NCBI GenBank assembly: GCA_964016885.1
Contig: OZ024744.1
Location: 94,612,001-94,676,000, forward strand
Reading direction: 5' to 3'
Length of the DNA stretch: 64,000 nucleotides
Origin: Eledone cirrhosa
Lineage: Eukaryota
This document shows, one piece after another, positions 7,658 through 56,532 of this stretch; the first letter of the stretch is position 1, and every line of letters begins with the position of its first letter. A model generated the notes under the pieces. That model did no database searches. It was not told the DNA's origin and saw only the letters and a list, made by a program, of their open reading frames with translations. The position numbers and the translations under genes were made by a program.

Positions 7658-8914
7658 AAATATGGTTTTATAAATATAGTTTCCATTTATTTAATATCGT
7701 AAATATACTCCAAATACTTGTTGAGTGCTTTTATATCAGTTGTAACCCAACAATTTAAATATAACTTTGCATATATATATATATATATATATATATATAT
7801 ATATTTATTCATCTATCAAGTCTGATAAATAGGTAAAACACCAGACTAACAAGGCTCACTATTTAGCCTTAATAAAATGAATATTAAAACTCTACTTCGG
7901 TATTGTGTACTCTTTTCGCTCAGCTGCCAACCACACACACACATACATGCATATATATATATATATAGATAAAATATATATTTATACATATATATATATA
8001 TATATATATATATATATATATATATATATATATATATATAGTATATATATTTACATATATATATAGTATATATATTTACATATATATATATATATATATA
8101 TGTATATAGTATATATATTTACATACATATATATATAGTATATATATTTACATACATATATATATATAGTATATATATTTACATACATATATATATAGTA
8201 TATATATTTACATACATATATATATAGTATATATATTTACATACATATATATATAGTATATATATTTACATACATATATATATAGTATATATATTTACAT
8301 ACATATATATAGTATATATATTTACATACATATATATAGTATATATATTTACATACATATATATAATACATATATAGTATATATATATATAAATACATAA
8401 ATACAGAAAGCTATTAGCGATATTCCGACCAATTTCCAATTCACTCAACAAACATTAGGAAATACCGGAGTATATTCCCAATTAAACGTTTGGGGTGCTA
8501 ACTATATTGTATTGTGTGGATAGTCTGCTGCATTATTTTATATGAGATATATTAAAAACTCAATCCCCATACGATCATTTCATTATAAGATTTCTGCATG
8601 GTGGGTGAAATTTTACCAAGTTATGTAGAATCTTGCATAAGATCAATGGATTCCCATGCAAGTGGGCGCTTATAAATCTTCAGTGGGTGCCCAATAATAT
8701 CAATATTAATAACTAAATCAACATTAATATTTAGAGATAATCTCCATCAGTGCTAGAAAGAGCTGCCTAGGTTGTATGTCCAGCAGTTCTAAAGAAAATC
8801 TCACACTGTCCCCAAAATAGGAGAGGGAGGTCATCGTAAAAAATAAAATAATATACACGCAGGTCATTGAACCCTGTCATATATATATATATATATATAT
8901 ATATAAATATATAT

Positions 8915-9279
8915 ATAAGAAGAAATTAAAAGATGGTTAAAAAAGTTCCATGTATTTTATTATGGGCATTTCATAAACAAATATCATCCAGGGATGATAT
9001 TTGCGTTCTAAGAACATATGTTGTTTAGACACTACCTTGCTCACAAGTGTCTTTTTTTAAGCTTCATATCATGTCTCCCTATTTTATCTGATGAGAACGC
9101 AAATATCGTCCCTGGATGATATTTGTTTTTGAAATGCACATAATAAAATACATGGAACTTTTTTAACCATCTTTTAATTTCTTCTTATATATATACTCCA
9201 GTCCAATAAACTGTTGAGTGCTACTTATCCGATATTTGCATTGCTTTATTGTGCTATAATAAAACTCAGCTCCTACATT
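8915..9279. mobile_element. Short PLE terminal remnant with inverted arms
   Basis: 8915-9009 is the reverse complement of ~9094-9190. HHR at 9080-9150. Same family as 56497-56640. Confidence 0.8.
9080..9150 (+). ncRNA. Type I hammerhead ribozyme
   Basis: TATTTTAT-CTGATGA-GAACGCAAATATCGTCC CT GGATGATATTTGTTTTT-GAAA-TGCACA-TA-ATAAAATA. Confidence 0.85.
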
Positions 9280-9644
9280 AAATATATATATATATATATA
9301 TATATATAAATATATATATATATATATATATATATATATATATAAATATATATATATATATATATAAATATATATATATAATATATACATATATAGTATA
9401 TATATTTACATACAAATATATATATATATATTATATATATATATGTGTGTGTGCATATATATATATATGTATATTTATATATGTATAGATATATGTATAG
9501 ATATATGTATATATATATGTATAGATATATGTATATATATATATATATATATATGTATATATATATGTATATATGTATGTATATATGTATATATGTATGT
9601 ATATATGTATGTATATATATATATATGGATATATATATATATGT

Positions 9645-9992
9645 GGAGGCACATGGCTTAGTGGTTAGAGCATTGGCCTTGCAATCGAAAGGTTGTGAGT
9701 TCAATTCTCAGACCGGGTGATGTGTTGTTTCCTTGAGCAAGACACTTTATTTCACATTGCTCCAGTTTACTCAGCTGTAGAAATGAGATGATATGGACTT
9801 GAGTCCCTATCATTCCACTGCAAAGTGGTCGTGGAGGTGCCACGGCAAAAAAGCACCCAGCACTCACTGTAAATGAGGTTGGTGTTAGGAAGGGCATCCA
9901 GCTGTAGAAATCAAGCCAGAATCAGTTCCCGTCCCACCCTTGCAAGCAGGGAAAAGTGGACGTAAAATGAAATGATGATGATGAATGATGAT
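9645..9992 (+). mobile_element. tRNA-derived CORE-type SINE with RTE-derived tail
   Basis: A box TGGCTTAGTGG, B box GAGTTCAATTC, CORE-like CCTTGAGCAAGACACTTT..CAGTTTACTCAGCTGTAGAAATG. 3' end matches RTE 45310-45372. Confidence 0.85.
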
Positions 9993-10218
9993 GTATGTAT
10001 ATATATGTATATATATGGATATATATATATATGTATGTATATATATGGATATATATATATATGTATGTATATATATGTATATATATATATATATATATGT
10101 ATATATATGTATATATATATATATATATATATATATATGTATATATATATATATATATATATATATAAAATATTAAACAAATAATGAATAAACAATTCCT
10201 TATATTAAACAAAAAAAG

Positions 10219-10373
10219 TTCATTATTTAACGATCGTTTCTAGGGTATATATGTGTTATAATTGGTATGCATATTCAACAGATCTATGTACAAAATTATA
10301 CAAAATTATACAAATTATCAAGATTAAATATACATACCTAACACATATATACGCCGTCTTCAGAAATAATGAA
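10219..10373 (-). ncRNA. Type I hammerhead with long stem II
   Basis: Inverted copy of 13427-13581. Confidence 0.8.
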
Positions 10374-54487: not shown

Positions 54488-55222
54488 CATCGTCATCACC
54501 ACCACCTTCACCATCACCACCACCACCACCACCACCACCTTCACCATCACCATCATCATCACCACCACCATCATCATCACCACCACCACCACCACCATCA
54601 TCATCATCATCACCATCACCTCCACCATCACCACCACCACCACCACCACCATCATCACCATCATCATCACCACCACCATCATCACCACCACCACCACCAC
54701 CACCATCATCATCATCATCACCATCACCTCCACCATCACCACCACCACCACCACCACCACCATCATCACCATCATCATCACCACCACCATCATCATCACC
54801 ACCACCACCATCATCATCATCATCACCATCACCATCACCATCACCACCACCACCACCACCACCATCATCATCATCATCACCATCACCTTCACCATCACCA
54901 CCACCACCACCACCACCATCATCACCATCATCATCACCATCACCATCACCACCACCACCACCACCACCATCATCACCATCATCATCACCACCACCACCAT
55001 CATCATCATCATCATCCCCACCACCACCATCATCATCATCACCACTACCACAATCATCACCATCATCATCATCATCATCACCACCATCACCATCATCATC
55101 ACCACTACCACAATCATCACCATTACCACCACCACCACCACCACAATCATCATCACTACCACATTCACCACCACAACAATCATCACCACCATCACCACCA
55201 CCACAATCATCATCACCATCAT
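54488..55222 (+). repeat. (CAC/CAT)n compound trinucleotide repeat, ~730 bp
   Basis: Seen directly; gives poly-H/T/P ORFs in all frames. Confidence 0.95.
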
Positions 55223-55800
55223 TATATCAGTTTTTCCATGCTAGCATGTGTTGAACAAGTCTTGTATGATCACATTACGTCCCTTTACGGACTGAGTTCA
55301 AATCCTGCCAAGGTTAACTTTGCCTTTCATCCTTACGGGGGTCGATAAAATAAAGTACCAGTAATACACTGGGTAATTGCTGGCCTTGTGCCAAAAAGTA
55401 GAAACCATTGTGTGTTGTGTTGAGAGTTACGGCCCTTGCCATTCTGAGTTTGAATTCCGCCGAGGTTAACTTTGCCTTTCATCCTTACGGGGTCGATAAC
55501 ATAAAATACCAGTAATGTACTGGGTAATTGATGGCCTTGTGCCAAAAAGTAGAAACAATTATGTGTTGTGTTGCTTCAATATCTGGCACACACAATAAAC
55601 GCCCTCCCCCACCAATCTTTGTTATTTTGTCATTACTCTATTATATATTCCAGCCGAAAGGCTGAGGCCATGCTGGGGTGCTGTCATTAAGAATACTTAT
55701 TTTTTTTTTTTGTATAGTCCTTACAACTAGATATGTCTTATTTAGTGGCAACCATTTTACATTAATGTATTGGCACATTTTAAAGTGCCCCTGGCTTTAA

Positions 55801-56004
55801 CCCTTTAGTATTTACATTACTCTATATATACTATTGTATTTCATGGTAAAGGCTTTATCTCATGTAATATTGAATCTGTGAGATTTTGATATCTATTTTG
55901 AGAACAATATTTTAACATCAGTATGAGTAGCCAGTTATGGCCAGTTTGTACAGAAAGAGGTGAGAGAATTCTGGCTGGGTATGGCTGGTTTACATGCTAA
56001 AAGG
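55801..56004. mobile_element. piggyBac-like MITE; second copy at 51305-51497
   Basis: TTAA flanks, CC..TTAG.ATTTA / TA.ATGCTAA..GG termini, two homologous copies. Confidence 0.65.
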
Positions 56005-56321
56005 TTAAAGAATTCACTTTCTTAAACCTGTATCAAGCAGTGTTACTGCTCTCTTAGATTACCTTTGCTGTGGGTGTGTATATGAAGTCAGCCAACTGTC
56101 CTTTTGTCTGTTCCTTCATGTGTTTACATGTATATACAGCATGAGATGGCTGCATTTTATAATGCCATTCCACTTGAAACAGTCAAGTAGAATGTTTAAA
56201 TGGAATGCTGTGGAAAACAATATTTGATCTCTTTTCAATTAAGCTGGCAGAAAAACTGATATTTTTAAGGAATTGGTCAGTGTGATAGACTAGATTAGGT
56301 CCATCACAACACCTCATGGAA

Positions 56322-56370
56322 GCTTCCTGATGATTTCTCTCGAATGAAACAGTTCTAGTCCTGTAGAAGC
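56322..56370 (+). ncRNA. Type I hammerhead with a conventional hairpin stem III
   Basis: GCTTC-CTGATGA-T TTC TCTC GAA T-GAAA-CAG TTCTAGTC CTG-TA-GAAGC; GUA site. Confidence 0.82.
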
Positions 56371-56532
56371 CTTTTCTATATTAAATATTTATACTCTGCT
56401 TTGTATCGAGTACCTTACTTACTGTGGTTACCTCCGATTGAACCCGGGATAAACATACACACACATATATATATATATATATATATATATATATAATATA
56501 TAAGATCAAAAGATGGTTAAAAGAGTTCCATG

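Follow-up and report, generated by a model that had tools for sequence, protein, structure and literature searches.

Penelope-like elements (PLEs) encode reverse transcriptases (RTs) that are the closest mobile relatives of telomerase. To our knowledge, only one PLE has been studied in vitro. In the Poseidon element PAc, the RT starts at two internal sites that bound the tail and lie in an AC-rich stem-loop, extends both strands and needs RNA 3' of the start; a dimer is predicted, and the hammerhead ribozyme is dispensable in vitro (Frangieh et al. 2024, PMC11167929). The Hydra clade of PLEs, described by Craig et al. in 2021, is characterized by hammerheads, insertion into (TA)n and inverted pseudo-long terminal repeats (pLTRs) with a tail at one end (PMC8557442). 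That the tail is often found at one end only is already known. Here, a 64,000-nucleotide stretch of the Eledone cirrhosa genome is analyzed, which is referred to as the window (GenBank assembly GCA_964016885.1, contig OZ024744.1, positions 94,612,001 to 94,676,000 of the forward strand; G000:C28:94.61-94.68 Mb in a genome of 3.0 Gb). It holds insertions of Hydra-clade PLEs that carry a small bulged hairpin.

The hairpin is a second conserved structure of the pLTR, which lies on the strand of the hammerhead and is tied to insertion ends, as a preliminary description made from the window alone had proposed. Full elements carry it twice, as H1 downstream of the hammerhead and as H2 shortly before the start codon of the open reading frame (ORF). 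Insertions end just 5' of H1 (tail-less ends) or just 5' of H2 (tailed ends, which contain H1), and inverted insertions have one end of each kind. These elements would resemble PAc in two internal starts that bound the tail, in the extension of both strands and in the need for RNA 3' of the start, which were shown in vitro for PAc and which we infer for Hydra (PMC11167929). In contrast, PAc belongs to another clade and differs in sequence, and the available text on it mentions neither a duplicated motif nor a fixed distance, a priming pad or a rule of one end of each kind; its start is described as non-homologous to the target, whereas the Hydra starts lie on a target-like pad (PMC11167929). 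The Hydra elements of Craig et al. share the ORF motifs, and their consensuses contain the hairpin unremarked; the main text has no 'hairpin' and ascribes the tail to the endonuclease (PMC8557442). Their tails were given as 30-40 nt, compared with ~55-90 nt here, and the elements of this genome exceed 3 kb. The host elements thus belong to a known clade, while the hairpin motif, the fixed distance and the one-of-each count seem to be newly described within the literature searched. No description of them was found in the available text of PMC8557442, PMC11167929, PMC4209133, PMC3846280, PMC7229834 and bioRxiv 2026.07.22.740005 or in the open literature searched.

Relatives were collected by a protein search, which gave 321 matches (33-49% identity among the 120 matches listed), and 78 marine-metagenome loci were taken. 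Among 55 metagenome ORF starts with at least 150 nt upstream, two hairpins were found in 41, three calls in one, one hairpin in nine and none in four. Where a hammerhead was present (35 ORF starts), 32 had two hairpins, one had two and an overlapping extra call, and in two a single hairpin was detected. Across 33 families, H1 follows the hammerhead cut by a median of 48 nt, and H2 follows H1 by a median of 64 nt. The start codon lies ~15-55 nt past H2. The twin layout is also present in families A, B and N of E. cirrhosa, and full copies of family A run from the hammerhead through H1 and H2 to a start codon ~20 nt further on. For families B and N, H2 was predicted beforehand to lie 3' of the tailed end and was then found; its pattern matched 279 times in B and 415 times in N (the latter with double listings), compared with 0 for reversed-pattern controls, and at the inspected loci H2 was followed by a Hydra ORF. 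The preliminary description had held that the ribozyme plus one hairpin is sufficient for mobilization. This view is not sustained by full elements, which carry two hairpins, and the copies it listed are end products without H2. As insertions stop before H2, H1 is the only one of the two hairpins that the window contains.

Published consensuses, read by eye, extend this distribution. The sea cucumber Hydra-1_Ajap begins with both hairpins, and the coral Hydra-2_Amil as well as Hydra-2_Ajap have H1 after the hammerhead (PMC8557442 File S7). Hairpin variants are found in the Hydra-1_Crog and Hydra-1_Obim consensuses, and no hairpin was seen in that of Hydra-1_Amil. Therefore, the motif spans cnidarians, echinoderms and this genome.

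Insertion ends lie ~5-9 nt 5' of the respective hairpin, on a UA-rich pad. Among tail-less ends, 125 of 137 anchored ones fell within -12..0 of H1 with a peak at -8 to -6, and 67 more were not anchorable. All 67 anchored tailed ends (families A, B and N) fell within -12..0 of H2 with a peak at -7; 24 were not anchorable. An unselected sample gave the same range for 31 of 33 tail-less and 12 of 12 tailed ends. In the metagenome, the six exactly anchored ends, out of 12 anchored junctions, were all at -12..-3. The pad is visible in the metagenome families, where TAT or ATA starts at -8..-6 in 47/99 family-positions for H1 and 32/99 for H2, compared with 49/495 elsewhere. Family A ends cluster ~49 and ~139 nt past the hammerhead cut.

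Head-to-head pairs of the same family show how the two kinds of end are combined. From 120 such pairs, 105 had two classified ends, and 104 of these were mixed, one was tailed at both ends and none was tail-less at both. Pairs that were not selected by the query were mixed in 43 of 43 cases, where 49% was expected. Among 106 mixed pairs, 41 were near-perfect palindromes and 28 could not be placed; in the others, the tailed arm exceeded the tail-less arm in 20 cases, and the reverse held in 17. The tail-less arm is the longer one in the window element at 3135-7771. Since either arm may be longer, simple fold-back of one cDNA is argued against. The closest copy of an arm was its own partner in 38 of 46 cases, ties included.

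A single locus, L415 (G000:C2:216011200-216013000), bears on the role of the ribozyme. It is an inverted insertion with one tailed and one tail-less end, made of 204-bp tandem units that contain H1 and H2 and neither a hammerhead nor an ORF. Adjacent units meet ~5 nt beyond the position of the hammerhead cut, and this junction occurs twice in each arm and is absent from the other 36 of 40 matches. These features fit copying of both arms from one hammerhead-free RNA, circular or tandem. The hammerhead had been proposed as one of two parts of a module sufficient for mobilization, a view that is not supported by this insertion with both hairpins and no hammerhead.

Repeat addition at the junction is suggested by family E, in which (CT)2 precedes the pad. 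The two units are kept in 30 of 30 tailed copies, whereas among 14 tail-less ends eight have 4-22 CT units, four have one and two have two. Runs of CT or CTAT were also seen at the tailed ends of hammerhead family S. Across the window and loci L031-L090, 47 of 412 (TA)8+ arrays had a hairpin or hammerhead, found by strict detection, within 200 nt and pointing at them; therefore, detected PLE ends do not account for most (TA)n arrays.

The hairpin itself is well separated from chance. The 14 bulged stretches listed in the preliminary description were all found in place. A strict scan (RCTC, upper stem of at least three pairs, TY bulge, GAGY and two outer pairs) gave 13 matches in the window, compared with a mean of 0.97 and a maximum of 3 in 30 dinucleotide block shuffles; chance or a microsatellite artefact was rejected as the source of the motif. 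Short hairpins alone gave nine matches compared with 0.5 in shuffles. Window matches at 49032, 14327 and 17431 were taken as chance. In 600 kb of evenly spaced genome stretches, where the motif is less dense than in the window, the excess was weaker (five shuffles; short hairpins 19 vs 2-9, long ones 28 vs 4-16). Among 51 strong hairpins from the window and this sample, (TA)n was found 25-90 nt downstream in 30 and at that distance upstream in two, and a hammerhead was detected upstream on the same strand in 12 and downstream, on either strand, in none.

The recurrence of the hairpin with a covarying upper stem was confirmed on independent elements. In hairpins located by sequence alone, Watson-Crick pairing was found at upper pair 1 in 65/70 (37.9 shuffled mean), at pair 2 in 42/63 (18.7), at pair 3 in 31/42 (11.4) and at pair 4 in 17/35 (9.8), with shuffles that disregard kinship. 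A quickly built RT tree covered 36 of 41 twin-hairpin elements, the other five having no ORF piece above 250 aa. On this tree, H1 pair 1 switches between U-A and C-G seven times, at least five of them forced by well-supported branches; because the 36 rows were chosen with a pairing rule, the tree counts switches and not mismatches. The core as first described needed revision in two respects. The bulge is U plus any base (UU > UC > UA) rather than TY, and the core extends further, with a pyrimidine-purine upper pair 1 and a conserved unpaired RCU on the 3' side. In 33 metagenome families it reads G-C-U-C, pyrimidine, variable upper stem-loop, purine, U-N bulge, G-A-G-C and unpaired A-C-U. The outer lower pair varies among G-C, A-U (this genome) and U-A (L157, L166). 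A search of Rfam with two full pLTR stretches gave no match, and for the window only (TA)n-driven microRNA matches below the gathering score were seen among 150 of 288 rows.

The elements that carry the motif are Hydra-clade PLEs according to their ORF motifs, and not Naiad elements as had been supposed. ORFs could be linked to the motif in families A, B, F, N and probably D, and all are Hydra-type; none was linked to families E and G or to the instances at 8442, 14775, 32184, 44919 and 7889. Locus L010 has an intact single ORF of 742 aa, with the RT followed by a C-terminal GIY-YIG-like motif at residue 620. It also has DKT at residue 118 (a modified DKG) with a second DK-A at 147, RWR at 37 as a conservative variant of RWK, and a CxCx5C linker at 601, before the endonuclease. 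A Hydra endonuclease is expected to have no CCHH motif, and one CxxC was found in this ORF (699). No Pfam family was matched by this ORF. DKT, CxCx5C and the C-terminal GIY-YIG characterize Hydra-clade elements (Craig et al. 2021, PMC8557442). A predicted canonical hammerhead is present in the pLTR, and the insertions are bounded by (TA)n, which may be target or synthesized repeat, as no empty sites were seen. The Hydra length of generally less than 3 kb, given as a tendency only (PMC8557442), is exceeded by family A, with a 2.2-kb ORF and a 3' region of ~1.4 kb, and by family N, which repeats every 3.5 kb. Naiads have an N-terminal GIY-YIG, a CxC motif between endonuclease and RT and no canonical hammerhead. 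A Naiad origin was rejected because the endonuclease is C-terminal, the only CxC, at 601, lies after the RT, and hammerheads are present. Six 9-mers searched in the published Naiad consensus file gave one match, inside an ORF and without a hairpin, in a search in which line breaks may hide ~1/8 of matches. In family N (L343-L354), a hammerhead missed by the detector was seen by eye ~25 nt before H1, its core is a variant, stem II has a long insert and loop III is palindromic.

The expected spread over many PLE families was found for several Hydra families. Generality to all PLEs was rejected, because neither hammerhead families R and S nor the other PLE types in hand, at their 3' ends, have the hairpin; several hammerhead families of this genome are without it, and no relative was found in viral contigs. 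Some of these elements have end structures of their own. [quoted passage not shown] Family S (L385-L414; ORF not found) has two end classes ~45-60 nt apart and a hairpin with an AC-rich loop that starts ~7-12 nt past the short end and recalls the PAc stem-loop. Family R (L355-L384) is retrozyme-like: its ends fall on several TA-rich pads, it occurs in short tandem arrays (L368, L369), and no hairpin of this type and no ORF were found. One copy of a UG-bulge hairpin follows the tail of the non-Hydra hammerhead family Q (L033:4086-4460 (+), L034:2341 (+)); it is probably a chimera with another, hammerhead-less family.

Positions and covariation together are best explained if the hairpin is an RT recognition and priming signal. 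This part of the preliminary description is retained as the likely reading, with Hydra in place of Naiad as the host. Specifically, each hairpin would dock the RT 3' of the start, the 3' end of the target would pair with the pad, and two cDNAs per event would give an inverted one-tailed insertion; from the sequence data, we assign this reading a probability of about 0.65. The protein would cut both strands of the (TA)n target, each target 3' end would pair with a pad, and copying would start ~7 nt 5' of the hairpin. cDNA from H1 would become the tail-less arm and cDNA from H2 the tailed arm, both probably copied from a single RNA that two copies of the protein hold. Head-to-head joining of the truncated cDNAs would follow. 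The tail would be the RNA between the two start points, which would explain why it is optional, and the hammerhead is probably dispensable for docking. Since the docking hairpin would not be copied, each end would lose it, and new active templates would need partial tandems, circles or a template jump. A more specific version, which we offer tentatively, is that an RT dimer grips the two hairpins of a single, possibly circular RNA, primes one cDNA at each (TA)n break end 7 nt 5' of either hairpin, realigns as telomerase does on a pad of 1.5 repeats and then copies at length.

Several observations weigh against RT docking at the hairpins. The hairpin is weak, with a median lower-stem pairing probability in context of 0.89 (H1) and 0.62 (H2) and only 0.22 and 0.04 for upper pair 1, and the best ViennaRNA fold lacks it in 5 of 12 folded window instances (14775, 32184, 48051, 56392 and 8442). 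The G-U/A-C counts in the four upper-stem pairs (2/1, 3/4, 3/0 and 4/3) do not tell RNA from DNA. The PAc start site is the same on both strands, and its stem-loop is without this motif (PMC11167929). Since pad and (TA)n target match, the ends are windows spread over ~-12 to -3 rather than points; with the anchor at -42..-20, ends more than 20 nt upstream of H1 were beyond the reach of the method. Family D is mixed without a clear H2, L146 has one hairpin, and families C, E, G, K and M are represented without a full copy. The likeness of arms could stem from later gene conversion, and later slippage beside (TA)n could also give (CT)n runs. Stutter words inside (TA)n are clear only in family E and most families have no such signal, the tail-less word of A being found in 1 of 29 ends and the tailed words of A and N in none.

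The main rival is recognition in DNA, in which the GIY-YIG endonuclease reads the hairpins in the cDNA or a donor copy and cuts ~7 nt upstream at the TA pad, with the end types resulting from resolution of an intermediate. A TA pad suits a TA-cutting nuclease, the stems have no clear enrichment of G-U pairs, and Craig et al. attribute the tail to resolution by the endonuclease (PMC8557442). The tail of the D. virilis element is needed for endonuclease recognition of DNA (cited in PMC11167929), which also counts against RT docking. We nevertheless consider endonuclease recognition unlikely. The tail borders of PAc are RT start sites (PMC11167929), family-specific stutter occurs exactly at the junction, the bulge is confined to one side, and pairing of the stem is more probable for the sense strand than for the antisense strand (0.89 vs 0.52 for H1, 0.62 vs 0.26 for H2).

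Fold-back of one cDNA is less probable still. Here a cDNA from H2 would fold at its truncation point, and back-copying would run until H1 stopped it or caused a cut, with no second RT start, and self-priming has been proposed for PLEs (PMC3846280). Such a process accounts for the 104/105 mixed pairs, the likeness of arms and the 41/106 near-perfect palindromes. It predicts a tailed arm that is never the shorter one, against which stand the longer tail-less arms in 17 of 37 placed pairs, including the window element at 3135-7771, as well as the stronger pad of H1 and the stutter at H1 ends. We give the least credence to a role in expression, which appears very improbable: the hairpins would act on transcription or translation of the ORF, as an internal promoter or by start-codon repression, and ends would lie nearby only through TA-rich pads. 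The position of H2 ~15-55 nt before the start codon suits this idea, and PLE promoters have been reported in the pLTR (PMC8557442). Ends rarely fall on the remaining TA-rich stretches of the pLTR, however, as the two family A clusters show, the pad is kept at a fixed distance from both hairpins, and the strict one-of-each pairing would be left without explanation.

The features of the window are collected in Table 1. A hammerhead is recognizable for 7 of the 14 listed instances, and the distance from cut to hairpin is 27-57 nt in six of them (7706, 41475, 9194, 19219, 20992 and 56392); at 44919, it lies ~60 nt before the hairpin as judged by eye. No hammerhead was detected before the instances at 13639, 14775, 20050, 32184, 48051, 8442 and 7889. 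The ORF of the first family A insertion has many near-identical copies in the genome, some of them intact.

Table 1. Hairpins and associated PLE features of the window (window coordinates)
Feature	Position	Strand	Remarks
Tail-less partner end, same inverted insertion as H1 at 7707	3135..3260	-	Hammerhead cut 3203; ends 6-8 nt before H1 position
5'-truncated broken Hydra-type ORF (RT + C-terminal GIY-YIG)	4587..6636	-	
Type I minimal hammerhead, family A	7593..7658	+	Core 7601, cut after 7650, 56 nt before H1
H1, Hydra family A	7707..7729	+	Opens tail of tailed end
Remaining tail, family A	7730..7771	+	Ends in (TA)n at pad, 4-10 nt before H2 in full copies
One-mismatch variant, family not assigned	7889..7908	+	No hammerhead detected
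Hairpin, one copy seen	8442..8472	-	No hammerhead detected
H1, Hydra family B	9195..9222	+	Hammerhead cut after 9142; tail-less partner end near 8918 (-)
H1 with long upper stem, family F	13640..13723	+	No hammerhead detected; tail leads into Hydra ORF in L052, L060
Variant hairpin, family not assigned	14775..14835	-	Upstream part lost
Local duplicate of 13640 hairpin	16744..16827	+	Not in preliminary description
H1, family E	19219..19252	+	Hammerhead cut after 19167; ORF not found; tail-less ends often with expanded (CT)n
H1, family A relative	20048..20070	-	Hammerhead lost
H1, family A relative	20990..21012	-	Hammerhead cut 21069
Hairpin, family not assigned	32185..32207	+	No hammerhead detected
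Second inverted family A insertion	36570..41557		Tail-less end (-), hammerhead cut after 41419, tailed end
ORF pieces of second family A insertion	38018-38818; 38804-40030	-; +	
H1 of second family A insertion	41476..41498	+	
One-mismatch variant	44919..44976	+	~60 nt past hammerhead; family's tail-less copies stop just before; ORF not found
Hairpin with UA bulge, family K type	45605..45628	-	Not in preliminary description
H1, family G	48052..48090	+	Upstream lost here; hammerhead in copy L044; ORF not found
H1, family D	56393..56414	+	Hammerhead cut after 56365; family's H2 not resolved

In family D, which is very abundant and mostly palindromic, a short simple hairpin with a changed stem stands at the expected H2 place in L331, L332 and L337, and H2 may be degenerate. 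A local duplication of ~3.1 kb at 12000-18600, a segmental duplicate or an assembly artefact, contains the hairpins at 13640 and 16744 and matching ORF and repeat lists. An inverted C-terminal fragment of a Hydra ORF lies at 31222-31684 with a 99-bp near-perfect palindrome at 31476-31574, and a tail-less family N-like end follows near 31995. The window also contains a LINE-type ORF of 1044 aa with endonuclease and RT (24707-27844, +) and a LINE-type RT fragment (33291-34523, +).

Known RNA structures offer partial parallels. The hairpin of the eel LINE UnaL2 is single, lies at the RNA's 3' end and is copied into every daughter. It is a small conserved hairpin of the 3' tail with a bulge or internal loop and is needed for retrotransposition (PMC1636434). 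In contrast, the Hydra hairpins are twin and internal, lie 3' of the start and would not be copied by the cDNA that they start. In telomerase and DRT10, of a related RT clade, stem-loops lie beside a short template that realigns and repeats; they are 5' of the template and set the stop of copying, whereas the Hydra hairpins are 3' of the pad and would set the start of long copying (PMC12632851). By analogy, the function of the Hydra hairpins may be compared with RT recognition by the hairpins of stringent LINEs and with template positioning by the stems of telomerase-type enzymes, but they are a twin, internal signal 3' of the start. [quoted passage not shown] They are primed by protein or tRNA, and the bulge of epsilon serves as template, whereas Hydra ends fall outside the hairpin and the target probably provides the primer.

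The hairpins bear on how PLEs choose their RNA and produce inverted one-tailed insertions. The covarying hairpin of ~20 nt, present twice and a fixed distance away from both end types, lends itself to simple mutational tests, for which intact natural Hydra ORFs exist in this genome, for example at G000:C2:122944418-122946610. The hairpin is also a sequence marker for Hydra ends and provides an annotation rule. If the tentative dimer reading is true, a twin-hairpin stretch of ~110 nt would serve as a portable signal for insertion with two ends, independent of a ribozyme, and the element would build, and not only target, the (TA)n and (CT)n microsatellites of its host. The data hint that repeat addition at a short template positioned by structure is common to Hydra PLEs and telomerase.

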